This document shows positions 3,316 to 14,572 of a stretch of 64,000 nt of DNA, piece after piece. Numbering within the stretch: position 1 is the stretch's first letter; every line of letters begins with the position of its first letter. The notes under the pieces were generated by a model. The model was not told the origin of the DNA and ran no database searches. It saw nothing but the letters and a program-made list of their open reading frames with translations. The DNA is from an uncultured Bacteroidia bacterium (GTDB lineage: Bacteria > Bacteroidota > Bacteroidia > Bacteroidales > CAJPTX01): the NCBI GenBank assembly GCA_947252645.1, contig CAMXWF010000006.1, positions 64,697 to 128,696 of the forward strand, read 5' to 3'. The translations under genes and the position numbers were made by a program.

Positions 3316-4179
3316 ATGAGCATCAACGACACCACGCCCCCCGCGCCTGAGAGGCCCGAGGCTCGCCACTTAGGCCATCGCTCTCCACTGCCCGACCGCT
3401 ACGACCCCACCTTGCTGGTTCGCGTGGAACGCCAACTGGCCAGAAAAGCCAACCGAGTGGACACCTCCAGCTCTCCCTTCGAGGGCTTCGACGTTTGGCA
3501 CGCCTACGAGGTAGCCTGCATGCAGCAAGCCGGACTGCCCATCGAGGGGATTCTCAAGGTGATCTACCCTGCCAGCAGCCCCTACATCGTGGAGAGCAAG
3601 TCGCTCAAACTCTACCTCCACTCCCTCAACAACGTCGCCATGGGCTTTACCCGCCCCGCGTGCATTGCACAGCTCGTCAGCACCGTGCAGCAAGACCTAC
3701 GCCTGCTGCTCAAAACCGATGTGCGGTGCCAATTCTTCGACCACTACACCGCACCATGCGACTTTGAGGGGTGGCAACCCTACGAAACCGCTACCCCCAC
3801 AAGCGCAGCCCAAGAGAATGCACTCGACCACGAGCTACACTTCCACACTCGCCTGCTGCGCAGTCGTTGTCGCGTGACTGGGCAACCAGATTGGGGCAAT
3901 CTCTACGTACACATGCAGGGCGAAAAGCTCCCGCACCCCCAAGAGCTACTCCAGCAGGTCGTTGCGCTACGCAATGGCTTCCACTTCCACGAAGAGATCT
4001 GCGAACTGCTCTACAGCGCGCTCTACCAGAAATACCTCCCTGCGCTTCTAACCGTATGCACCCTCTACACGCGGCGCGGGGGGATCGACATCAACCCCTG
4101 CCGAACAAACAACCTCAACGACCTTCCCCAGGGCCTCACAGACCTCAACGCACTGACGCATCCCTCGTGGCGACAGTAA
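3316..4179 (+). CDS. queF: NADPH-dependent 7-cyano-7-deazaguanine reductase, two-domain (type II) form
   Basis: The 287-aa product contains IVESKSLKLYLHSLNN and CRVTGQPDWGNLYV, which are hallmark QueF motifs. Confidence 0.85.
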   Translation: MSINDTTPPAPERPEARHLGHRSPLPDRYDPTLLVRVERQLARKANRVDTSSSPFEGFDVWHAYEVACMQQAGLPIEGILKVIYPASSPYIVESKSLKLYLHSLNNVAMGFTRPACIAQLVSTVQQDLRLLLKTDVRCQFFDHYTAPCDFEGWQPYETATPTSAAQENALDHELHFHTRLLRSRCRVTGQPDWGNLYVHMQGEKLPHPQELLQQVVALRNGFHFHEEICELLYSALYQKYLPALLTVCTLYTRRGGIDINPCRTNNLNDLPQGLTDLNALTHPSWRQ

Positions 4180-7100
4180 ACGCCACGGGGACCAAGGCCT
4201 CTCTCTGCCCGCAACCCTTGCCCTGCGGGCGCATCCTGCGGGCGCATAGCTGGTTATGGTGGCTGCGCGCCCTCCTGCCCACAGCCCTCCTCCTGCTGCC
4301 TAGGCAGCTGCCCGGCCAAAGCATCAGCAATGCCCTAGCCACCGATACCATCGCCTATAGCTTTTCAGCGGCCGCACTGCTCGGCGGGCAGAATGCCGAC
4401 AGTGCCCTGATCCCTTTCCAGCCGTTCACCAAACACCCTGCCCCGGCGGCTGTTCCGCCCCCCTTTACCATCCACGGCATGGCCGAGCGCAATATTGGTA
4501 CGGGCGGCAACTCTCAAAATCCGCGCGGGGGCATGACCGACTTGACCATCGAGGGCCCGCTCTACCACGGCATCCGCACCACCATCCGCATCGCCGACCA
4601 AGCTCTGCCCTTCCAGCCTCAAGGCACAAGCCAAGAGCTGCGGCTCCTCAATGAACTCTACATCCACATCTACGACTCCTCCTGGCGCCTAGAGGCCGGC
4701 GATATCCGCATCCAAGCACAGCAAAACCACTTCCTCCTATTCACCCAACAAGCACGTGGACTCCTAGGCCGCGTGGCCCTGCGCACAAAGCACCATGGGC
4801 GTATCCGCCTACATGCCGCCTTCGGCCTCCCCAAGGGGCAAGTGATGAGGGTGTCGCTCGCCCCTATCGAAGGCGTGCAGGGCCCCTACGAACTCCAAGG
4901 CCATAGAGCCTTCACGCGGGTAGTGGTGCTGGCCAACTCCGAGCGGGTCTACCTCGATGACCAACTCCTGCAAAGAGGACTTGACCACGACTACACCATA
5001 GACTATAACCTCGGCACCATTACCTTCACGGCTCGCTGCCCCATTAGCTCCCGCAGTCGCATCGCAGTTGAGTATGAAACGAGCCAATCGCCCTACCAGC
5101 AGCTCGGCGGCCAGCTAGCACTCCAAGGCCAATGGCGCAACGGATGGTCCATGGCGCTGGGGGGCGTGGTAACCATGGAAACAAAGACGAACTCTCCGCG
5201 CGCACCGGGTAGCACACCACAAGCCCTTTTCCCCGAAACGCTCCTAGGAATTTCGTCTGGGGAAATGGCGGAGAATAGGACCTCCTACCAGCTACGCGAC
5301 ACCACCGTGGACGGACAGCGCTACCAGATCTACGTTCCTACGACCGCAGGAACACCGTCGTCGCAGGGACTAGCGGTCCCATTCAGCTACGTGGGGCCAA
5401 ACCAGGGCAATTACATCTCCACGCAGGGCAACAACAACCAGCAGCTCTTCCTATGGGTAGCCCCCAAGATGGGTACGCCCCAGGGCAGCTATATGCCCTC
5501 CACGGAAAAGCAACAAGCCCCACGCAGCCACCTACTGCTTGAGGCCACGCTAGGCAAAGCATGGCGCGACAGCGCTACGGGAGTGGCCTTCACCGGCGCA
5601 TACTCCCTACAAGGAAGCAAGACCCGCCAGGCTGGGGGTGGCTACCTGCAGGGCGGCGCACTCCTGCTCAGGCATCACGCCCTCCTCATGCAACGCCCCA
5701 ACTCGAAGCTCTCGCTACAAGCGCAAGCACAATGGGTACACAGGGCGTTTAGGGCCTTCCTCCCCTTCGTCCCTACCCCCATGGCGCACCAGTGGGGGCT
5801 ACACGATAGTCTCTTGGCGCATGATTTCGCTGATGCCTCCATCTCCATACTGCAGCGCACGCCCCAAGGACACTGGCGCATAGCGACACAGGGACTCGCA
5901 CGTCCCGCGCTCCTAGGGGGGGCAGCTAGCCTAGAGCAACAGCACCGACTCGGCCGCTGGTCGCTCGACAACGTCATAAAAACCTCACTAGTACGCCTCC
6001 AAACCACAAGATACCATCAGGGCTCAGTCGCTAGCAACGTGGCCCACCACTGGCACTACGCAACCCTAGGCAGCTGCACCAAGGCCGAATGGAAACAGCA
6101 GCTCACCCCCGGCAACAAAGACCTCCCCCAAGACTTCGCCACGCTCACGGGGGGGCTATATACCTGTCTACACGACTCCACGCGCTACTCCACGCGCCTC
6201 GATGTGCTCTATGAGCAGCGGTGGGACACGCTCCACAACAAGCTCACCCCCAGCAGCTCTGCGCTCCTAACCAAGCTGGAGGGTCGCATAGGACTTCCAG
6301 GGGCCGGGACTCTAAGTGCCACCTTGGGCTACAAGCACTTCCTCTCGGTAGCTGACGCATGGCGCAGCCTAGGGCGCAACCACTTCTTGGGCAACCTCTC
6401 GCTCCAGCTCCCCCTATGGGAGCATCGCGTAGGCCTCGCGCTCCTGACGCAGCTACGGGGGGAGACCGTCCAACGGTGGCAGCTGCACTACATCCCAGTC
6501 CCAGTGGGCCAAGGCCAGTATGCTTGGCTAGACCTCAACCGCGACGGCGTAGCCCAGCTCAACGAATTCGCCCCCGCGCAGCACCGCGACCAAGCCTGCT
6601 ATTCCCTACAGTACGTGCCAAGCACCAACAAAACCATGGCCACTGCCGGCGAAAGCCACCTCACGCTTCAGATATCGCCCCGCGCACGGCAACAACCCAT
6701 CGACTCCTCCACCGATTGGTGGCTGCGCTGGGACATCCACCTAGCACTCTCCGCCAGCACAAAAAGAACCGACAACCAATGGTACCTCGCGCCTCTCCCA
6801 TGGCTACCTCAAGACACAAGCTGCTGCCCAGAAGGCGCCTCTACGCTCCAGGCCCAACTCCTGCTCAACCACCACGCCAAGCCCATAGGCCTCACCTACG
6901 CCTACGTACGCACAAAAAGCCATCAGCTGCTTGCGCAAGGCCTACAGGCTTTTGGACGGAGTGCCCATTCCATCGCCCTCGAAACGCCAGTAATCCACGG
7001 CTGGTGCTCGCTGCTAAGCCTCCTCTTAGCCCATGAGCAGCGACTGCAACCCTACCACAGCAGCCAAATGGTGCGGGTCAAGCGCCTAGAACTCTCTGCC

Positions 7101-7472
7101 TCCATCGCCTACGAAACTAGCAAGCACGCTGTGCACCAGCTCACCGCGCAGTTCAATACCTACCTGCAGGAAAAACAAAACCGCGCGCGCGTCCAATCGT
7201 ATGGCTATAGGCTCGAATGCCCATTCGGCGACAAATGGCAAGCCCATCTCAGCGTCACCTACGCGCACGCTGATGCCACGAACCCAGGGAACAACGCCCT
7301 CAGCTACGAACTCCTACAGGGTCTAGGTAAAGGGCACAATGGACTCCTAGAGGCGCAACTACGCTATAAGATTACCCGATACCTCACTGGGGGGCTGACA
7401 TACTCATTCCGGAAAAACCAGCTCAGCCCAGCAGTACACAGCGGCTACATCCAACTACAGGCCAGCTTCTGA
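4167..7472 (+). CDS. Large (~1100 aa) predicted outer-membrane beta-barrel protein, function unknown
   Basis: The ORF is 3771-7472, but its first ~400 nt overlap queF in another frame. A signal-like segment WLWWLRALLPTALLLLPRQLPGQS follows the in-frame GTG at 4167 and TTG at 4218, and there is no in-frame ATG nearby. The product ends ...YIQLQASF (terminal aromatic residue) and has alternating beta-strand-like composition. Confidence 0.6.
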   Translation: MATVNATGTKASLCPQPLPCGRILRAHSWLWWLRALLPTALLLLPRQLPGQSISNALATDTIAYSFSAAALLGGQNADSALIPFQPFTKHPAPAAVPPPFTIHGMAERNIGTGGNSQNPRGGMTDLTIEGPLYHGIRTTIRIADQALPFQPQGTSQELRLLNELYIHIYDSSWRLEAGDIRIQAQQNHFLLFTQQARGLLGRVALRTKHHGRIRLHAAFGLPKGQVMRVSLAPIEGVQGPYELQGHRAFTRVVVLANSERVYLDDQLLQRGLDHDYTIDYNLGTITFTARCPISSRSRIAVEYETSQSPYQQLGGQLALQGQWRNGWSMALGGVVTMETKTNSPRAPGSTPQALFPETLLGISSGEMAENRTSYQLRDTTVDGQRYQIYVPTTAGTPSSQGLAVPFSYVGPNQGNYISTQGNNNQQLFLWVAPKMGTPQGSYMPSTEKQQAPRSHLLLEATLGKAWRDSATGVAFTGAYSLQGSKTRQAGGGYLQGGALLLRHHALLMQRPNSKLSLQAQAQWVHRAFRAFLPFVPTPMAHQWGLHDSLLAHDFADASISILQRTPQGHWRIATQGLARPALLGGAASLEQQHRLGRWSLDNVIKTSLVRLQTTRYHQGSVASNVAHHWHYATLGSCTKAEWKQQLTPGNKDLPQDFATLTGGLYTCLHDSTRYSTRLDVLYEQRWDTLHNKLTPSSSALLTKLEGRIGLPGAGTLSATLGYKHFLSVADAWRSLGRNHFLGNLSLQLPLWEHRVGLALLTQLRGETVQRWQLHYIPVPVGQGQYAWLDLNRDGVAQLNEFAPAQHRDQACYSLQYVPSTNKTMATAGESHLTLQISPRARQQPIDSSTDWWLRWDIHLALSASTKRTDNQWYLAPLPWLPQDTSCCPEGASTLQAQLLLNHHAKPIGLTYAYVRTKSHQLLAQGLQAFGRSAHSIALETPVIHGWCSLLSLLLAHEQRLQPYHSSQMVRVKRLELSASIAYETSKHAVHQLTAQFNTYLQEKQNRARVQSYGYRLECPFGDKWQAHLSVTYAHADATNPGNNALSYELLQGLGKGHNGLLEAQLRYKITRYLTGGLTYSFRKNQLSPAVHSGYIQLQASF

Positions 7473-7622
7473 TAGCCTCACCCTCCCCTACCCCGATGTG
7501 GGGGGAAGAATGGCCAGCGCTAGGGGAAAGCAAGTGCCAGGTACAAAGCGAGCCAGCCTTGGCGTGGCTGGCTCGGGGAAAGCTTGGGGCATTAGGGGTG
7601 CTAGCGCATTAATGCCATGCTT

Positions 7623-9422
7623 CTAGCGCAGGCTACGGACCGCACGGGCACGGTGATACTCAAATCTAGCAGTGCTTTTCGTCCCATCGCTAAAATTGAG
7701 CACCTCGTAATCATCATCTAATGTGGAAGTACTCGACCAATAGATATCGTCACTAAAGCCAACTATGTCTGCCCGCTTTTTGTAGAGTGTTTCCAACTCT
7801 CCTATCGAAGGTAACCTCCAGTCACTAAAACCTGCGAACACCACTTCATCGCACAGCTTATCGGCATGATAATGATCTTGGCCTGCAGTAATGTCTTGAT
7901 TCATCACCATGAGATTATCGGACCTAAGGATCACAATGTACTTCTCTAGAGCCATTTCTGTCCTGAACTTCTGCGTTGTTCCGTATGTCACACCCCCTGC
8001 GTGCTTGGCGTAGGCTCTTACATAGTAGGAGGTTTCATCCGTCAACCCAGAGACTTCAACGCTGAAGGCCCCACTTGTGCCAGCAACGACCACCGTTGTG
8101 GTTGCGCTGGGATCATCGTCCAGAGAGGGCTCTGCTTGTAGCTGCGCGTAGACAAAACCGCGCTCGGTGAAGGGCGGTTCGCCTGCGTAGACTATTTCCG
8201 CATTGAGCCTGGCGGTGGTCGTGGTAATGTGTGTTGGCTTTTTTGTACTCACAACGGGCAGGCCCGTGACCTCAAAACTAACCTCGTCTCCGTATACCAC
8301 TCCGCGACTATTCTTAGCATACGCCCGCACGTAGTAGGTGCCTTTCTGCAGGGCGCTCAGGGAAGCGGTAAATAGGTTGTTATACCCAAGAGAAAGAGAC
8401 CCTTTTACTACCAAACCATCTGTTAGGGGACTCGGGTGGTTGGCGTAGTAGAATCCATATTCAGACGGCGCAGGGCTGCCATGTAATTCAAAGTAACTGC
8501 CCAATACTACAGAACTCCCCGTGACAGCGGATTCTGCTTCGTGCACTGTCATCGTGTTTAGCCGGGCTAAGGCAACATCGCACCTCACCCGCTTGCCCAG
8601 CTCTGCGTTCACGGAAGCCTTGGAATCCTTATAATCGTATTTTTGCACCACCACATCGTAGCTTCCCCCTTTCTCAAGTTTGCTGAACGCATAATTACCG
8701 CGGTTCGCGTAGGTGTCTGCAATCAAAACGCCGCTCGAAAACAGCTTTACTGTTGCCTCCAATGGATACCCTTCAGCCGCATCTGTCACCTTGCCGTAAA
8801 TGCTGGTTTGAGGGGTTTGAGGGGTCAACACAATATCGAAATGAACCCTTTGCTCCTGCTGCACGATCACCTTGGCGGTGTAATCTTTATATCCATTTGC
8901 AGCAATCTTTACCGTATATATTTTGGGATGAACTGGCTTGAACTCATAGCTGCCATCGTCGGAGGTGCGAGTGCTCAACAGCAGGGCCCCCTCGCTATAC
9001 AAGCAAACCATCGCTGCTCGCAGAGGCTCCCCCGTAGACGCATCGACTACCACGCCGTAGATACTGCTTTTTGGGGTGGGGCCGGCCGCAGAGAGCAATG
9101 CGATATCGCATCTGGCTTGGCGCCCAGATTCTACGGTCACTGCCGCCGCAAAATCCTTGTACCCGACTTTCTTTACCCCAACCGCATAGCTGCTTCCAGG
9201 AGCCAAATCCTTGAACTCGTAGTGTCCATCATCGTACGTAACGGTACTCAATAGGAGCTCGCTACCCGTATACAGCTGCACCTGCGTGCCCCGCATGGGC
9301 TCAGCACTTTGCGCATCGACCATTACACCGTAGATACTACCTTTTTCCTGCTCGTTCTTACAGGAAGTGAGAAGCAGTGTGAGCGTAAGTATTGCTAGCA
9401 ATAGGGATATGGTTTTATTCAT
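7623..9422 (-). CDS. Multidomain lipoprotein: three carboxypeptidase-regulatory-like domains, Fn3/Ig-like repeats and a C-terminal DUF1566 (Lcl-like) domain
   Basis: The start is set at MNKTISLLLAILTLTLLLTSCKNE (lipobox). SIYG(V/K)(M/V)(V/T)DA...EP/YPL...V.L(Y/F) modules occur three times. The C-terminus FSDWRLPSIGELETLY...YWSSTS matches the DUF1566 pattern. Confidence 0.75.
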   Translation of the reverse strand: MNKTISLLLAILTLTLLLTSCKNEQEKGSIYGVMVDAQSAEPMRGTQVQLYTGSELLLSTVTYDDGHYEFKDLAPGSSYAVGVKKVGYKDFAAAVTVESGRQARCDIALLSAAGPTPKSSIYGVVVDASTGEPLRAAMVCLYSEGALLLSTRTSDDGSYEFKPVHPKIYTVKIAANGYKDYTAKVIVQQEQRVHFDIVLTPQTPQTSIYGKVTDAAEGYPLEATVKLFSSGVLIADTYANRGNYAFSKLEKGGSYDVVVQKYDYKDSKASVNAELGKRVRCDVALARLNTMTVHEAESAVTGSSVVLGSYFELHGSPAPSEYGFYYANHPSPLTDGLVVKGSLSLGYNNLFTASLSALQKGTYYVRAYAKNSRGVVYGDEVSFEVTGLPVVSTKKPTHITTTTARLNAEIVYAGEPPFTERGFVYAQLQAEPSLDDDPSATTTVVVAGTSGAFSVEVSGLTDETSYYVRAYAKHAGGVTYGTTQKFRTEMALEKYIVILRSDNLMVMNQDITAGQDHYHADKLCDEVVFAGFSDWRLPSIGELETLYKKRADIVGFSDDIYWSSTSTLDDDYEVLNFSDGTKSTARFEYHRARAVRSLR

Positions 9423-9645
9423 GGCTCTTTGTCTTTTACACGTGAACTGGTAACCTAACTGCCACCCCAAGCAGGGCATCATGGTGTAGAGGCAGAGTAG
9501 CCCGCCCTATGCGCCACGATGGCGTACTGCTCGGGATTGGCTTGATGAACTTTAGCCATCGGTCGATCCTCAGGGGCTGCGGGTTGCCCCTGGGGGCTGC
9601 GCTGCGCGCTGGCGATCGTGGGCTTCTTGGCATCTGAACGGCAAT

Positions 9646-10059
9646 TTACTTAACCTCTATATCGACTCGGCACTCTTTCCCAGGCTCTACTGTGGTGCTA
9701 GCCTCTCCAGAAAGAGTGTAACTGATACCAGCTACTCTCGCCTTAACCTCTATTGAATATTTGTACTGTTTAATCCAGTAGTAGTCCTTATATTCGCATA
9801 GAAGATCTTTGAACTCGTAGCGGCCAACGATAGAGGTAGTGGCTCCAGCCATGTAGTGGTCATATGTATACCCCCCATCATCACTACTTCCTCCTGTTCT
9901 ATATAGCTTTACTGTGGCGCCGACCACTGGTTCTCCGTTGCTCTGCAGGGTTACCACGCCGTAAATGCTACCTGGTTTTTTACTCGGCTTCTTCTCACAG
10001 CCATAGAGGAACCCCGCAAGGGGGAGGAGGACGACGAGTATGTAAATCAACCTATTCAT
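9646..10059 (-). CDS. Small lipoprotein with one carboxypeptidase-regulatory-like domain
   Basis: The signal and lipobox are MNRLIYILVVLLPLAGFLYGCEKK. They are followed by GSIYGVVTLQSNGEPVVGATVKLY. Confidence 0.65.
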   Translation of the reverse strand: MNRLIYILVVLLPLAGFLYGCEKKPSKKPGSIYGVVTLQSNGEPVVGATVKLYRTGGSSDDGGYTYDHYMAGATTSIVGRYEFKDLLCEYKDYYWIKQYKYSIEVKARVAGISYTLSGEASTTVEPGKECRVDIEVK

Positions 10060-10393
10060 GGCTCGGCTTGAGTTTAGTCATTGAAATGTTCACCTCATTG
10101 TTCTCCCCCACCACGGCCGTCACCGTCTTCGTGTTGGTGCTGTAGCCGTCCTTCTGCACCTGGATGGTGTACTGCACTGGCTCGAGGTCAACGAACTCAA
10201 AGCGCCCGTCGGTGCCGGTGGTCTGCGTTTTGCCGCCAGGGCTTAGCTGCACGCTCACGCCAGCTATGGGCTCCGCGCTACTGTGGTCTTTCACCACCCC
10301 GTGCAGGGTGGCGAACGTATCGTACTCGGCCTTCTTGCAGCCCGCGCATACCACTAGCGATAGGCAGGCTAATATCACGATTGCTCTCCTCAT
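10052..10393 (-). CDS. Small lipoprotein with one carboxypeptidase-regulatory-like domain
   Basis: The start is set at MRRAIVILACLSLVVCAGCKK (lipobox). The domain reads LHGVVKDHSSAEPIAGVSVQLSPGGKTQTTGTDGRFEF. The gene overlaps the next gene by 8 nt. Confidence 0.7.
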   Translation of the reverse strand: MRRAIVILACLSLVVCAGCKKAEYDTFATLHGVVKDHSSAEPIAGVSVQLSPGGKTQTTGTDGRFEFVDLEPVQYTIQVQKDGYSTNTKTVTAVVGENNEVNISMTKLKPSHE

Positions 10394-10413
10394 ATTCCAA
10401 TTACTCCAGGTCA

Positions 10414-11214
10414 TTAAAAATCCAATGCCACGTCTACCCCCACGGCTGTTGGCGTGACGTAGGGACCAAAACGACACTCCGCAGTGCCGATGACTACGTG
10501 CTTCTTGCCCTTGCAGGCTATACCATCGATGACATTCCATACGTAGAAGGCCGCGGCGCCAGCGATCAACCCGTTACGTACGTTCTGCGCCACGCTGGCA
10601 CTCTTGGCGTACGAGGCCCTCTTTCGGGCATCGTGCGTCGTTCGGAGCTGCGCAGCGTAGGAGGCGCGCAGGCACTCAGCCGCCACAAGCCCCCCCACCA
10701 GGGCCACCTCACCCGCAATGAAAAAGCCACCCCGACCAATGCTGCCCCGATGGATCTGCGCCCACCCAGGTACAAAGACCCGGGCCGAGAAGGGGTACTC
10801 GTTCGTAACCTGTACAGGCTCAAAGTCCCAAGCAGGTTTTTTGGCCGTCTGTATCAGGAGGTAAACCCTATAATTCCCCGGGGCGCAGTACTCCCGGTAC
10901 TCATCGATAACCCTCGACTTGACGGTGAGCTCATCGTTGCCCTTGACACGCACCGCGCCGTGCTCCACGTAGACGCTCACACGCTTCCCCGTGCTGAGGC
11001 TACGGCGGCTGATGGCGATCTCGGCGGCCTTGTTGCGCGCGGTGGCCTCATCGGGCCCCTCGGCACTGACCACCTCCGTATAGGAGTTCGCAGACTCGGC
11101 AAAAAATCCACCAACCCACGCAGGCCGCTCCTGCGTGGAGTAGCATTGGCCCCATACCAAGCAGGGAAGCAATGCAAAAACCGGTAAGAGTACTAAACGT
11201 CTCATTGTACGCAC
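10414..11214 (-). CDS. Secreted/membrane protein of unknown function with a PGWAQ-motif hydrophobic C-terminal half
   Basis: The signal peptide is MRRLVLLPVFALLPCLVWGQ. The N-terminal half has an alpha/beta pattern similar to the neighbouring LPP20-like paralogs. The C-terminal half, VPGWAQIHRGSIGRGGFFIAGEVALVGGLVAA, resembles the DUF5683-type PG.GQ membrane motif (weak recall). Confidence 0.55.
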   Translation of the reverse strand: MRTMRRLVLLPVFALLPCLVWGQCYSTQERPAWVGGFFAESANSYTEVVSAEGPDEATARNKAAEIAISRRSLSTGKRVSVYVEHGAVRVKGNDELTVKSRVIDEYREYCAPGNYRVYLLIQTAKKPAWDFEPVQVTNEYPFSARVFVPGWAQIHRGSIGRGGFFIAGEVALVGGLVAAECLRASYAAQLRTTHDARKRASYAKSASVAQNVRNGLIAGAAAFYVWNVIDGIACKGKKHVVIGTAECRFGPYVTPTAVGVDVALDF

Positions 11215-11222
11215 GTAGGTTA

Positions 11223-11867
11223 CTACTCCGCCTCTAGCTCAGACGCTGATGCTGGCTGCGGCTCGGGCTTCGCATTCGGATCCTTGAAGTACTTCTCCAT
11301 GCGCTTTCGGAAATTCTCCTCATTGACGCGCACACTCAGCTCCTCATCCTGCGCCACTTCTTCTGCTATAGCCCTTGCCAACCGATTCTTGTCGATGCGA
11401 ATACCCGTGATGCATTGCACGTTGCCCTTATCGTCAGGCGAGGTGAACTTTTGGCACCAAGCCTTCGTATCGTTCAATATGGCATTAATGACATGCTTAC
11501 CAGCACGTTCCAATTTGTTGACAATATCCGTTCCCCCATCGTTGCCCATGGAGAGGCCATAGTCCTCAATAACCGCCTGGTAGACATGTGACATCTTCTG
11601 GGCTACTATAGCTTGCGCATTGGAAAGCGCATTAATCTGCAGCTCGTCAAGTCTAGTAGACGAGCCGTACGCAAAGCCGGTAGCGGTAAATTCGCTTTCG
11701 CTATCCGCCGCAAAGCAAGGTGCCTCTACCGTCTCCCCAAATAGACTATTCCTACTCGCTGGCTCTTGGGCCAGCACCCGACTACCACTGCCGCTGCCCA
11801 TGGAGAGCACGGCTACCCCCGCTAACCAAGCGACCACGGTCGCCCAACTCGCACCTCCGATCCTCAT
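11223..11867 (-). CDS. Secreted protein, LPP20-like family (paralog 1)
   Basis: It has a signal peptide ending VLAQ. It shares F.A.G.A.GS....L...AL.NAQ, VIEDYGL, ERAGK.VI and G.R.D...L with the ORF at 12707-13321. The LPP20-like assignment is tentative. Confidence 0.6.
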   Translation of the reverse strand: MRIGGASWATVVAWLAGVAVLSMGSGSGSRVLAQEPASRNSLFGETVEAPCFAADSESEFTATGFAYGSSTRLDELQINALSNAQAIVAQKMSHVYQAVIEDYGLSMGNDGGTDIVNKLERAGKHVINAILNDTKAWCQKFTSPDDKGNVQCITGIRIDKNRLARAIAEEVAQDEELSVRVNEENFRKRMEKYFKDPNAKPEPQPASASELEAE

Positions 11868-11893
11868 AATCCTACCCTTTCAATTCTAGTGTA

Positions 11894-12316
11894 TTACTTC
11901 TTCCCTTTCTTCTCAAAAACCTTCTCCATTCGCCTACGGAACTCGGCCTGGCGTTGCGTCTGGCTCTGCTCCCCATCGCTCGCCGAGGCCTCCGCGACGT
12001 TGGCGCCGAAACGCTGCGTATCGCCCCTTGTCGAATCGAATACTGCCGACCCTCTTCGCGCCACATCGCCGCGGACGTAGGTGCCTGTGTCGTTGCCCTC
12101 GTAGAGGCCATAATCCTCGATAACGCCCTTGTAGACATAAGGCCTCTGCTGCCGAGCTACATTCTGCCCATGGTCTTGCGCTGTGGAGGGCTCCACGCAC
12201 TTTTGCTTTGCAGCGCCTCTAACCATGGCGATTGCCAGCACCGCGCATCCCGCTAGTAAAGCACCCAGAAGGACTACTGTCGCAATTCGCCTACACTTAC
12301 AACATCCAACTTTCAT
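11894..12316 (-). CDS. Short, degenerate paralog of the LPP20-like lipoproteins
   Basis: It has the lipobox LLGALLAGC. It retains only YKGVIEDYGLYEGNDTG and EFRRRMEKVFEKKGKK of the family, and the middle is unalignable. It may be a decaying copy. Confidence 0.4.
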   Translation of the reverse strand: MKVGCCKCRRIATVVLLGALLAGCAVLAIAMVRGAAKQKCVEPSTAQDHGQNVARQQRPYVYKGVIEDYGLYEGNDTGTYVRGDVARRGSAVFDSTRGDTQRFGANVAEASASDGEQSQTQRQAEFRRRMEKVFEKKGKK

Positions 12317-12706
12317 CGCCAGTGTCGTTGGTACTTCATTCTTGAATCACGCAAAACGAGTATGGCGCACCTACACACCACCTCCCGAATATTTATGCAC
12401 AAGCAGCCTGGCGTAAATATCCTCGAGTGGCCCCATGCAAATCATCCCGCTACGCTCGTGGAATGGAATGATGTTGAAATGGCGCCACCCCACGTTGCAG
12501 TACGGACTTCCTCAGGGGAGCTGCCAACTCCAAGCTTCCCCTCGAACGTAGGGCTCAAGGGCAAACTCGCGCAGGCATACGCCAGGAGCAACATGTTGTC
12601 GGGGGCACCCTGGCACGCGCGCTGGAGGCAGCGCATGCGCGGCGAATAGCACAACGACTGCAGTCAAGCAGGCCAATTAGGCAACAAATGCACTTCTCTT
12701 GCGCCC

Positions 12707-13321
12707 CTACTCGCCCCTTTCGTTCTTGTGAGTTCTGAGCTCTTCGGCATACTTTTCACGGAACTTCGCCTCATCGAAACGCACCCGCAGCTCATCATCC
12801 CTGGTAATCTCATTGGCAATCGCATTCACGAGCTGTTTTACGTTGATCCTAATGCCTACGAAGCATTTCGTTTCCCCCCTCTCGTCTTCTGGGGTGAATT
12901 TGGGACCACACACCACCCGCGTATCATTGACCATCCGATCGATCACCTGGGTGCCTGCCCGCTCCACCTTGTTTTGCATGTTGCTGCCCTTGTTGAGCCC
13001 GATGTCGTTGCTATAGTCTGCTATAACGCCCTTGTAGAGGTGCTGCAGCCTCTGGCGCACCGAATTCTGGGCATTGGTCAGTGCCGAGGTCTGCAGCACG
13101 TCCATACGATACGCTGAACCTCGGGCTACGCCAACCGCAGCAAAATACTCATCAGTGTCTGACTCATGGCAGGGAAGATCATAGGCCACCTCTGGGGTGG
13201 GCGCAGCTACTGGGGTAGGAGTAGGCACATAGGTGACCATCTGCTTTGCACCACCACACCCCGCCATCAGCAAGACAACTAAAGTTGCCAAGGCAACAAA
13301 CTCCAAACTACACTTCCTCAT
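12707..13321 (-). CDS. Lipoprotein, LPP20-like family (paralog 3)
   Basis: It has the lipobox LVVLLMAGCGG. It is clearly paralogous to 11223-11867. Confidence 0.65.
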   Translation of the reverse strand: MRKCSLEFVALATLVVLLMAGCGGAKQMVTYVPTPTPVAAPTPEVAYDLPCHESDTDEYFAAVGVARGSAYRMDVLQTSALTNAQNSVRQRLQHLYKGVIADYSNDIGLNKGSNMQNKVERAGTQVIDRMVNDTRVVCGPKFTPEDERGETKCFVGIRINVKQLVNAIANEITRDDELRVRFDEAKFREKYAEELRTHKNERGE

Positions 13322-13426
13322 AGCTGTACCGTATTATTGTTTTTTGATACATACATCCTCTGCGCATGCATGCGCTGCTGAAAAGCATACGCTGCCCCTG
13401 CCCGCGGCATTTGTCGGCCTGACGGG

Positions 13427-13471
13427 AAATAAAAAAGGCGATGGCTCTGCCTCGTAGGCAGTGCCATCGCC
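13427..13471 (-). terminator. Intrinsic terminator (second of two downstream of rpoD)
   Basis: A 15-bp stem, ggcgatggctctgcc / ggcagtgccatcgcc, has one mismatch. On the minus strand it is followed by TTTTTTATTT. Confidence 0.6.
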
Positions 13472-13649
13472 CAATGAGCGAGACTGGTGTACGCAGTCGC
13501 TACATTATGAATTCCATAAGATATCTGGGGGGGGGTGGCGTTTTCACGTATTTCCCAATTAATCCATGCCCTCTACGATTGCGCGAAGATAGGTAAAAGA
13601 TTTTCCACATGAACAAACGAACACCAGCTCCCCTGCAAACCACTGCCCG

Positions 13650-13690
13650 ACAAAAACAAGGCGGCCTATCGCCCCTAGGGGCGATAGGCC
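13650..13690 (-). terminator. Intrinsic terminator of rpoD
   Basis: A perfect palindrome ggcctatcgcccc/ggggcgataggcc lies 22 nt after the rpoD stop. On the minus strand it is followed by TTGTTTTTG. Confidence 0.5.
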
Positions 13691-13711
13691 GTGCCACGGC
13701 TACCTCGGCCC

Positions 13712-14572
13712 TTAGCCTAGGTAGGCCTTAAGATTCCTACAGCGGCTCGTATGGCGCAAGCGCCGTATGGCCTTCTCCTTGATCTGGCGCACGCGCTCGC
13801 GCGTCAGGCCAAACTGGTCGGAAATCTCCTCGAGGGTCTTGGCTGGCTCGCCGAGCCCAAAGAACGACTTGAGGATGTCGCGCTCCCGGTCAGTCAGGGT
13901 GGCCAGCGCACGCTCAATCTCACACTGCAGGCTCTCCTGCTGTAGCCCCGCATCGGCCTTGGGGGAGTCCTGATTGGGGATCACGTCCACCAAGCTATTG
14001 TCCTCACCCTCGGCGAAGGGCGCATCGATGGAGACGTGACGCCCCGACACACGCATGCTGTCGGCTATCTTCTCCTTGGGCAAACTGAGAATGGCCGCCA
14101 GCTCCTCGGCCGAGGGCGAGCGCTGATTCTCCTGCTCAAACTTCGAGTACGCCTTGTTGATCTTATTGAGCATGGCCACCTGGTTTAGCGGCAAGCGCAC
14201 AATGCGCGACTGCTCCGCCAAAGCCTGCAGAATGCTCTGCCGTATCCACCATACCGCGTAGGAGATGAACTTGAAGCCACGCGTCTCATCAAACTTCATG
14301 GCCGCCTTGATGAGCCCTAAGTTCCCCTCGTTGATCAGGTCGCAGAGCGCCAAGCCTTGGTTCTGATACTGCTTGGCCACCGAGACCACGAAGCGCAAGT
14401 TCGCCTTACAGAGCTTCTCCAAGGCCGCGGGGTCACCCCGACGAATCCCCTGCGCATACTCCACCTCCTGCTCTATGGTGATGAGCGGCTCCTTACCTAT
14501 TTCCTGTAGATACTTGTCGAGCGAGGGACTCTCGCGGTTGGTTATCGACTTGGTTATCTTAAGCTGTCGCAT
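13712..14572 (-). CDS. rpoD: Primary RNA polymerase sigma factor, Bacteroidota short type
   Basis: The product starts [32 protein letters not shown]. It carries the region 2 motif [18 protein letters not shown]...[13 protein letters not shown] and the region 4 motif [23 protein letters not shown]. Confidence 0.9.

Follow-up and report, generated by a model that had tools for sequence, protein, structure and literature searches.

A recurrent Bacteroidales gene module that combines two uncharacterised envelope protein families with strain-variable lipoproteins

A run of genes for exported proteins of no evident function can be a coherent system or an accident of gene order. This question is raised by positions 7623–13321 of a 64,000-nucleotide (nt) stretch, here called the window, of contig CAMXWF010000006.1 (assembly GCA_947252645.1) from an uncultured Bacteroidia bacterium. 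Seven open reading frames (ORFs) follow one another on the minus strand from 13321 down to 7623, as the ORF list confirms for the original prediction, which had read them as a dedicated envelope or surface assembly. The ORFs are labelled P1 to P7 from the rpoD side, and all seven products carry export signals. P1 (12707–13321, 204 residues) is a lipoprotein, P2 (11894–12316, 140 residues) is a truncated, degenerate paralog of P1 and P3, and P3 (11223–11867, 214 residues) is a P1 paralog with an ordinary signal peptide. P4 (10414–11205, 263 residues) has an alternative GTG start at 11214. The remaining genes encode P5 (10052–10393, 113 residues), a lipoprotein with a single CarboxypepD_reg (CPR) domain; P6 (9646–10059, 137 residues), a second small CPR-like lipoprotein; and P7 (7623–9422, 599 residues), a large lipoprotein.

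Recurrence of the gene order in the Bacteroidales

The P4 family alone was used to fetch related loci. Its alignment was scanned against one genome per species and yielded 112 confirmed relatives; 80 loci from about 78 genomes were kept, and all their ORFs were searched with the profile of each window family. The 80 loci are almost all labelled Bacteroidales or Bacteroidia, with a few records named only 'bacterium', and the carriers comprise Alistipes/Rikenellaceae, Muribaculaceae, Paludibacteraceae, Odoribacter, Prevotellaceae, Bacteroidaceae, Tannerella and several Candidatus genera. The recurring order is a P1-family gene, a P4-family gene, a small CPR gene and then one to five genes for large lipoproteins that combine CPR, immunoglobulin (Ig)-like and Lcl_C/DUF1566 domains. 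A P1-family gene lies immediately upstream of P4 in 65 of the 78 loci with room for one, and a CPR gene lies immediately downstream in 58 of 75, encoding a small (~110-residue) protein in 51 of these. A same-strand CPR gene is found within 8 kb in 73 of the 80 loci, a large CPR protein with a P7-type Ig region and/or Lcl_C in 58 and Lcl_C itself in 42; in some lineages, the CPR genes are located upstream instead.

The recurrence of this gene order exceeds chance. The neighbourhood comparison proposed with the original prediction thus finds the genes co-conserved across the Bacteroidales, and no member could be placed in a described pathway by Pfam, NCBIfam, PADLOC, PDB sequence profiles or the full-text literature; on both counts, the claim that the cluster is not a random run of hypothetical genes is supported. 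The claim of a seven-gene unit holds in part. The conserved unit consists of four to five genes, to which the window adds duplications and one decayed copy: compared with the module, its cluster has three copies of P1, one of them decayed, and two of the small CPR gene, and it lacks the last gene. Unsupervised clustering of all ORFs from the 80 loci produced no recurring family other than P1, P4, CPR and a transglutaminase-like family.

A compact version of the module is seen in a locus assigned to Barnesiella intestinihominis, which was retrieved apart from the 80. It encodes a P1-family protein (215 residues), a P4-family protein (266), two CPR proteins (110 and 117), a 648-residue protein with CPR, BACON_2, fn3 and Lcl_C domains and a 505-residue transglutaminase-like protein, with operon-like gaps of 3–15 nt. 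Operon-like gaps are also present in the GCA_964018355.1 locus, whose P4 allele occurs on 172 contigs. In the window, P3 and P4 are 8 nt apart from the GTG start of P4, or 17 nt from the ATG start chosen by gene callers; P4 and P5 are 20 nt apart, and P5 and P6 overlap by 8 nt, in agreement with the tight packing originally described for the inner four genes. The other distances are 390 nt (P1–P2), 26 nt (P2–P3) and 223 nt (P6–P7). Independent gene calls on ten metagenomic contigs with an identical P1 gave the same seven genes.

The transglutaminase-like family consists of secreted proteins of ~500 residues and was found by the unsupervised clustering in 43 of the 80 loci, most often at the end of the run (for example L014:4771–6258, L091:12487–14004 and L092:11403–12887, with ~40 further loci); the window contains no copy. 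Its members are built from a charged N-terminal segment, a long proline-rich linker and a C-terminal core, in which C413, H441 and P470 are invariant and C468 and D469, the first residues of a 'CDPTY' motif, are conserved in at least 90% of sequences. C413, H441 and D469 are consistent with a Cys-His-Asp triad. Transglut_core (PF01841) matches 16 of 33 members and DUF553 matches 11 of 33, all below threshold (best E values of 4.8e-3 and 3.5e-4, respectively), and no NCBIfam model or PDB sequence match was found for the family. The original prediction that no enzyme, transporter or regulator is encoded applies to the seven window products, for which Pfam and NCBIfam give no such family. It is not a property of the system, because relatives often add this putative enzyme.

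Other arrangements were also observed. A Paludibacteraceae metagenome-assembled genome from horse faeces has four P1-family genes around P4 (L088:8682–14183), and in this locus the CPR genes are replaced by the gene for an 821-residue protein that faintly resembles P4 and contains a Cds6_C-like NTF2 domain. Two genomes carry two module copies on separate contigs (L070 and L075; L042 and L080).

The conserved families P1 and P4

P1 and P3 are paralogs with 40% identity (E 8e-46). P1 carries the lipobox LLMAGC, followed by GGAKQ without acidic residues, and its lipid-bearing cysteine is conserved in at least 90% of the family. P3 lacks a lipobox; its signal peptide is of the ordinary type (RVLA before QEP), and it would therefore be a soluble periplasmic copy. 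There are 49 close homologs of the family; in a library of 1.84 billion proteins, the family matches 504 cluster representatives at E ≤ 1e-3. It has no Pfam model of its own, and neither Pfam nor NCBIfam matches any of P1–P4.

The original prediction counted three LPP20-like paralogs in the cluster. At the sequence level, Pfam LPP20 (PF02169) does not match P1–P4 or 37 aligned P1-family members at E ≤ 1. Sub-threshold LPP20 matches (E ~1e-3) occur in three of 48 remote family members, and one remote member has a sub-threshold match to FlgT_N. When the P1 family was aligned by hhalign with Helicobacter pylori Lpp20, a query verified by Pfam as an LPP20 member (E 1.2e-17), only the signal peptides aligned; profiles of the P1, P4 and transglutaminase-like families gave no real match to PDB sequences. 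At the fold level, a distant relationship is plausible. The AlphaFold2 (AF2) model of P1 (predicted local distance difference test score, pLDDT, 79) has a β-α-α-β-β core followed by helices, preceded by a disordered Pro/Thr-rich linker (residues 23–50; pLDDT below 50). In a Foldseek search of the PDB, its top match is Lpp20 (5ok8; E 9.4e-3, probability 1.0; template modelling score 0.59, normalised to the target), followed by Tip-α entries and HP1454 (4kzs), none of which reaches E ≤ 1e-3; a weak match to the Campylobacter jejuni motor scaffold 9hmf was also obtained. P1 and P3 thus plausibly belong, at a distance, to the group of proteins with the LPP20 fold, and not to the Pfam family. The three-paralog claim is thereby plausible for P1 and P3 at the fold level only, and is not retained for the truncated P2.

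P2 is 30% identical to P3 over 122 residues with a 26-residue internal deletion. It covers only profile positions 60–133 and 159–196, so that the N-terminal strand region is missing, and many positions that are invariant in the family are lost. The missing half left no trace in the 390-nt gap. P2 is probably a pseudogene or remnant; it is nevertheless 92–100% identical among strains, and gene callers disagree on its start (110 or 140 residues).

Two cysteines of P1, C51 in a 'PC' motif and C138 in 'CGPKF', are gained or lost together across subfamilies, with one exception, and this covariation suggests a C51–C138 disulfide bond that would fit an extracytoplasmic location. The invariant C153 lacks an evident partner.

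No other member of the module is as conserved as P4, whose family has a mean column identity of 63%. Its AF2 model (pLDDT 80.6) consists of an α/β N-terminal domain, two helices of 34–38 residues (156–189 and 193–230) and three C-terminal strands, and the sequence contains an FVPGWAQ motif. The membrane-proximal halves of the helices are moderately hydrophobic, with conserved E166, E177, R210, N211 and D227. The C-terminus follows the family motif G-Φ-A-Φ-x-Φ-[NK]-F, where Φ is hydrophobic; 73 of 77 homologs end in Phe, and the pattern of hydrophobic residues at every second position (−1, −3, −5 and −7) and Gly at −8 is similar to the β-signal of outer-membrane proteins. P4 is predicted to be the only membrane-embedded candidate in the cluster.

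The N-terminal half of P4 had been predicted to be LPP20-like. Pfam, hhalign and Foldseek give no support to this assignment. Pfam LPP20 matches none of 36 P4-family members, the isolated N-domain or three stand-alone N-domain paralogs; hhalign aligns P4 with Lpp20 only over a 14-residue P-x-W-V-G motif (probability 0.4%), and a Foldseek search of the PDB with the whole P4 model gave no LPP20 match. The short P-x-W-V-G motif probably prompted the earlier call. The possibility that the P4 N-domain is a P1 paralog was also rejected, as hhalign found no relationship between the two families. The weak Foldseek matches of P4 (phage baseplate proteins, KpsE, Wzc and dodecin) have low probability and were not used as evidence of homology. 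DUF5683 (PF18935), a family of uncharacterised membrane proteins in Bacteroidota, weakly matches 31 of 36 P4-family members (best E 2.2e-5) over the PG-x-xQ motif and the two helices, and three homologs carry a precomputed PF18935 annotation; the window P4 itself does not match the profile at E ≤ 1. Relative to DUF5683, the P4 family adds the conserved α/β N-terminal domain.

Some genomes have an extra stand-alone gene of ~145 residues between the P1-family and P4-family genes, related only to the P4 N-domain (L034:9541–9978, L047:9555–9989 and L056:1099–1536). P3 and P4 are the two products with ordinary signal peptides, as originally described, that of P4 ending in GQ. A Gln occupies the predicted signal peptidase I site in both P4 (VWG before Q; signal region 11130–11205) and P3 (VLA before Q; 11760–11867), and the 'GQ' is conserved across the P4 family. 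These residues fit the 'Q-rule' of Bacteroidota, which concerns N-terminal pyroglutamate.

The CPR lipoproteins and their variation between strains

P5, P6 and P7 had been described as three proteins built from CPR modules. CarboxypepD_reg (PF13620; gathering score 32.3 bits) is found above threshold in P5 (59.9 bits) and in three stretches of P7 (114.9 bits); the match in P6 (23.8 bits) is below threshold, and the assignment is therefore confirmed for two of the three proteins and weaker for P6. The SIYG-type module starts reported earlier were located at residue 31 of P6 and residues 29, 120 and 207 of P7, and the LHGVVKD start of a fifth module is present in P5. P5, whose N-terminus reads VVCAGC followed by KKAEYDTF, is the counterpart of the small CPR protein that follows P4 in most genomes. 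It also matches TIGR04056, but with 23 bits relative to a cutoff of 368 bits and only over the CPR plug-proximal domain.

P7 is divided into two halves. The N-terminal half (8523–9422, minus strand) comprises the lipobox and three CarboxypepD_reg modules (residues 24–300), and the C-terminal half (7623–8522, minus strand) contains two Ig/Fn3-like repeats and Lcl_C/DUF1566. The repeats (residues ~300–500) resemble the N-terminal domain of the NCBIfam BT0360 arabinanase model (E 1.6e-11). Lcl_C/DUF1566 (PF07603; gathering score 34.9 bits) is matched at residues 513–596 with 40.7 bits (E 3.2e-10), and the NCBIfam model adhesin_Lcl matches the same C-terminal region (E 2.7e-6). Of the domains originally proposed for P7, DUF1566 is therefore above threshold and the Ig-like region is matched, but fn3 falls below threshold. 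In the Legionella adhesin Lcl, Lcl_C is the domain that binds glycosaminoglycans (PMC11162425); it is also described as C-type-lectin-like and as a frequent target of diversity-generating retroelements.

Five lipoboxes had been proposed in the cluster. Those of P1, P6 (FLYGC before EKK) and P7 (LLTSC before KNEQEK) pass a PROSITE-like lipobox pattern, and the other two are weaker: P5 fails solely through the Cys at −3 of VVCAGC, and P2 passes, but a second hydrophobic stretch comes after its Cys. No type IX secretion C-terminal sorting domain is among the Pfam and NCBIfam matches of P5–P7, which carry lipoboxes instead.

The residues after the lipid-bearing cysteine differ between the families. 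The P1 family has the consensus C-G-[AS]-S-K-Q, with a mean of 0.016 acidic residues at +2 to +7. For the large CPR proteins, the consensus is C-[TAS]-[EKD]-[DE]-[ED]-E-E, and 71% of them carry two or more Asp or Glu residues in this range; small CPR proteins continue with S-K-x-E-Y-D-x-F. Surface-exposure signals established by experiment in Bacteroidota are K-(D/E)2, SDDDD and CS(D/E)2; the signal consists of a polar or basic residue and then two or more acidic ones, and it is absent from periplasm-facing lipoproteins (PMC5080379, PMC6222051). The N-termini of the large CPR proteins resemble the known export signals at the family level. These motifs suggest that the P1-family lipoproteins, because they have no acidic residues after the lipid Cys, face the periplasm, and that the large CPR lipoproteins probably sit on the cell surface.

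Among strains with 100% identical RpoD and P1, P4 and P5 are 97–99% identical (97–98% for P4), and identity falls to 83% for P7 and 68% for P6. The P7 alleles of this one species (compared between loci L003, L004, L005, L008 and L010 and loci L001, L002, L006, L007 and L009) are either ~599 or 288–289 residues long. The N-terminal half is found in all alleles, and the short allele consists of the three CPR modules only, with ~930 nt for the Ig-like repeats and Lcl_C absent. Length variants within the species were also observed for P5 (108 or 113 residues) and P6 (131, 136 or 137 residues). The GC content at third codon positions (GC3) is 0.51–0.56 in P6 and P7 (7623–10059; P6 0.51), compared with 0.70–0.80 in rpoD, htrA, dapF, P4 and P5, and the lowest GC3 thus coincides with the most strain-variable genes. 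This pattern suggests recombinational exchange of the P6–P7 part of the locus.

Possible assembly, related systems and the surroundings of the locus

We tentatively propose that the window cluster is an expanded copy of a Bacteroidales envelope module in which a conserved periplasmic or membrane base carries variable, adhesin-like surface lipoproteins. The base would comprise P1 and P3 as putative LPP20-fold proteins, with P1 held by its lipid anchor and flexible Pro/Thr linker and facing the periplasm, P4 as a membrane-embedded component and P5 as a small one-domain CPR lipoprotein. The outer part would be formed by P7-type proteins, each a stalk of CPR and Ig-like β-sandwiches with the C-type-lectin-like Lcl_C/DUF1566 domain at its tip. 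An acidic lipoprotein export signal would take these large lipoproteins to the surface, where they would serve as adhesins for ligands or glycans, and their diversification between strains would be driven by their exposure. In many species, an accessory periplasmic transglutaminase-like Cys-His-Asp protein would probably process, cross-link or release the surface proteins.

Several observations weigh against this proposal. The export signals of the window proteins are poor: that of P7 (C-K-N-E-Q-E-K) has two non-adjacent Glu residues, and that of P6 (C-E-K-K-P-S-K-K) is weaker still, with one acidic residue. P6 and P7 could be variable because constraint is relaxed and not because an exposed surface is under selection. 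The module has no outer-membrane β-barrel partner, unlike the usual Bacteroidota surface lipoproteins, and the only possible exception would be a barrel formed by P4 as an oligomer. The P4 helices have mean Kyte-Doolittle values of only 1.3 and 1.1 and contain conserved acidic residues, and positive charge lies on both sides of them; P4 may therefore reside in either the inner or the outer membrane. Because the window and roughly 40% of the complete loci lack the transglutaminase-like gene, it cannot be essential to the core mechanism.

The fold of P1 also admits a wholly periplasmic arrangement, in which P1 and P3, perhaps with the P4 N-domain, polymerise under the outer membrane like the FlgP basal disk, and the CPR and Ig-like domains serve as periplasmic spacers or as struts that bind peptidoglycan or polysaccharide, so that the envelope is stabilised and no adhesin is displayed. 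The matches of the P1 model to Lpp20, Tip-α, HP1454 and, weakly, 9hmf point in this direction, as does the sub-threshold FlgT_N match of the remote family member. Self-assembly under the outer membrane is documented for lipoproteins of this fold such as FlgP, which are held by long unstructured N-terminal tethers comparable to that of P1, and the function of Lpp20 itself is unknown (PMC11756786). CPR domains are known in periplasmic proteins such as PorE. The large CPR proteins nevertheless have acidic, export-signal-like N-termini that the P1 family lacks, Lcl_C and BACON_2 are typical of exposed binding proteins, and strain variability of P6 and P7 together with domain loss in P7 above a constant base would be unusual for a periplasmic lattice; a purely periplasmic scaffold is unlikely. 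If the membrane component is emphasised instead, P4 oligomers could form a new outer-membrane channel or anchor, a dedicated partner or exporter whose C-terminal strands are inserted via the β-barrel assembly machinery (BAM), with the transglutaminase-like protease controlling release as LapG cuts LapA. The β-signal-like C-terminus, the merely moderate hydrophobicity of the helices, the high conservation of P4, weak fold echoes of KpsE and Wzc (an α/β base with a helical hairpin; probability 0.2 or lower) and the invariant C413 and H441 with the near-invariant D469 are in line with such a channel. Three short strands per protomer would be an unusual barrel unit, however; no structural match is significant, an inner-membrane hairpin is an equally good reading of the helices, the transglutaminase-like gene is absent from the window, and the LapG parallel is an analogy with no homology detected. 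We consider a P4 channel distinctly unlikely.

Capture of nutrients or glycans would give the lectin-tipped lipoproteins a different task, that of passing ligands to a TonB-dependent transporter encoded elsewhere, like BtuG and BtuH. Lcl_C, BACON_2 and the Ig-like similarity to the N-terminus of a glycoside hydrolase model are carbohydrate-binding-type features, and Bacteroidota surface lipoproteins commonly serve nutrient capture. The 80 loci have no SusC/SusD, TonB-dependent transporter, glycoside hydrolase or regulator conserved beside the module, however, and the conserved partners P1 and P4 would be unexplained, which makes this role improbable. Chance juxtaposition of unrelated, secreted hypothetical proteins, or carriage of the genes by a prophage or mobile element, would account for the mostly unannotated products and for the GC content of P6 and P7 below that of the surrounding genome. 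It is barely credible and effectively refuted by synteny kept across Bacteroidales families; in addition, a P4-family scan of viral contigs found no relatives, PADLOC gave no match, the window contains no flanking integrase or repeat signature, and the housekeeping flanks (rpoD, htrA and dapF) are constant in all strains. A bolder form of the base-and-adhesin proposal, also unlikely, would make P1 and P4 the core of an unrecognised envelope machine that inserts, holds or releases the CPR-Ig-lectin surface lipoproteins. It pictures a tethered LPP20-fold assembly under the outer membrane and an oligomeric P4 of new architecture (an α/β domain, a hairpin with buried Glu, Arg and Asp and a β-signal-like C-terminus), with the transglutaminase-like protease or cross-linker controlling maturation or shedding in many species.

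The original prediction had found no described system to which the cluster corresponds, and the databases and full-text literature give none. PADLOC at E ≤ 0.01 matched neither six window products nor the transglutaminase-like protein, and full-text searches of the literature turned up no paper that treats DUF5683/PF18935 or this combination of genes. Similarities to known systems are limited to individual components. P1 and P3 are predicted to have the fold of Lpp20 (HP1456), Tip-α, HP1454, FlgP and FlgT, in which helices pack on a three-stranded antiparallel sheet, and P1 resembles FlgP as a lipoprotein with a long disordered N-terminal tether. They differ from the Lpp20 group in lacking sequence-level membership and, in P1, in the extra C-terminal helices and the covarying Cys pair; the locus has no flagellum context, and the partners P4 and CPR are unrelated to the hp1454–1457 or flgP loci. 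The large CPR proteins have polar and then acidic residues after the lipid Cys, as do SusD/SusG, BtuG/H and BamH-K, and share the modular architecture of β-sandwiches and binding domains with other Bacteroidota lipoproteins that carry export signals. Unlike those, the module has no adjacent barrel and is a fixed operon with two uncharacterised families, and the window P5 (CKKAEYD, with E at +5 and D at +7), P6 and P7 have signals weaker than the consensus. P7 shares a terminal Lcl_C domain with Legionella Lcl, in which it binds sulphated glycosaminoglycans (PMC11162425), but lacks collagen-like repeats and a type II secretion context and is instead a lipoprotein on a CPR/Ig stalk. Type V (FimA/Mfa) pili resemble the module in their transthyretin-like β-sandwich lipoprotein precursors, surface location and strain variability; however, the seven products have no fimbrillin/Mfa match in Pfam, no anchor- or usher-like genes are present, and P5 is far below pilin size. 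The Lap system combines a surface adhesin (LapA), a transglutaminase-like periplasmic protease (LapG) and a membrane protein with a periplasmic domain (LapD). By analogy only, the module has the same trio of component types, with a candidate triad in its 500-residue family; no LapA, LapG or LapD homology, cyclic di-GMP domain or type I secretion genes were detected. The cluster has no match to SusC/SusD, the hallmark of polysaccharide utilisation loci. Membership in the Bacteroidota BAM dome (BamG-K) was considered and rejected, as the dome components are different proteins.

We rate the module as a variant within the known surface-lipoprotein loci of Bacteroidota, built on two uncharacterised families. 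Bacteroidales dominate animal guts, where surface lipoproteins make contact with the host, phages and neighbouring bacteria. Most characterised surface-lipoprotein systems centre on a β-barrel transporter, yet this module is fixed in many genera without a barrel gene, and its two functionally unannotated families are paired with lectin-tipped proteins that vary from strain to strain within one species. If the base does anchor or handle these variable proteins, it would represent a new mode of mounting adhesins on the Bacteroidota surface, a determinant for strain typing and colonisation and a first functional handle on DUF5683-like proteins. The cultured gut carriers, which include Barnesiella intestinihominis and Alistipes senegalensis, make the module open to genetic testing.

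The flanks of the locus are constant in all strains: the cluster lies between rpoD, htrA and dapF at one end and a convergent 1101-residue gene at the other. The insulation from rpoD by two terminators, as originally described, corresponds to two terminator-like hairpins on the minus strand between the end of rpoD (13712) and P1. Hairpin 1 (13662–13691), just downstream of rpoD, has perfect inverted arms of 15 nt, a 13-pair stem and then the T run CCTTGTTTTT; hairpin 2 (13437–13471), ~115 nt upstream of the P1 start, has 16-nt arms with 94% complementarity, followed by the T run TTTTTTAT. An Rfam scan of 7300–13800 found no RNA family, and a scan for σ70-type promoters, which excludes Bacteroidota promoter types, gave nothing above shuffled expectation. 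No inverted repeats of the invertible-promoter type were found around the 223-nt and 390-nt gaps; the repeat search returned only the two terminator hairpins and direct repeats derived from the paralogs.

The convergent gene directly downstream of P7 (4168–7472, plus strand; listed by the ORF tool as 3771–7472) has no Pfam match in precomputed data; its C-terminus, YIQLQASF, is like that of an outer-membrane β-barrel protein. It occurs in all strains of the source species, but its adjacency to the module is not conserved in other species, and it was therefore rejected as a module member. Long antisense ORFs lie opposite P4, P3 and P7, for example at 10081–11187 and 8643–9254 on the plus strand. 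They are left uncalled by gene callers on related contigs and are by-products of the high GC content (0.596 in the window).

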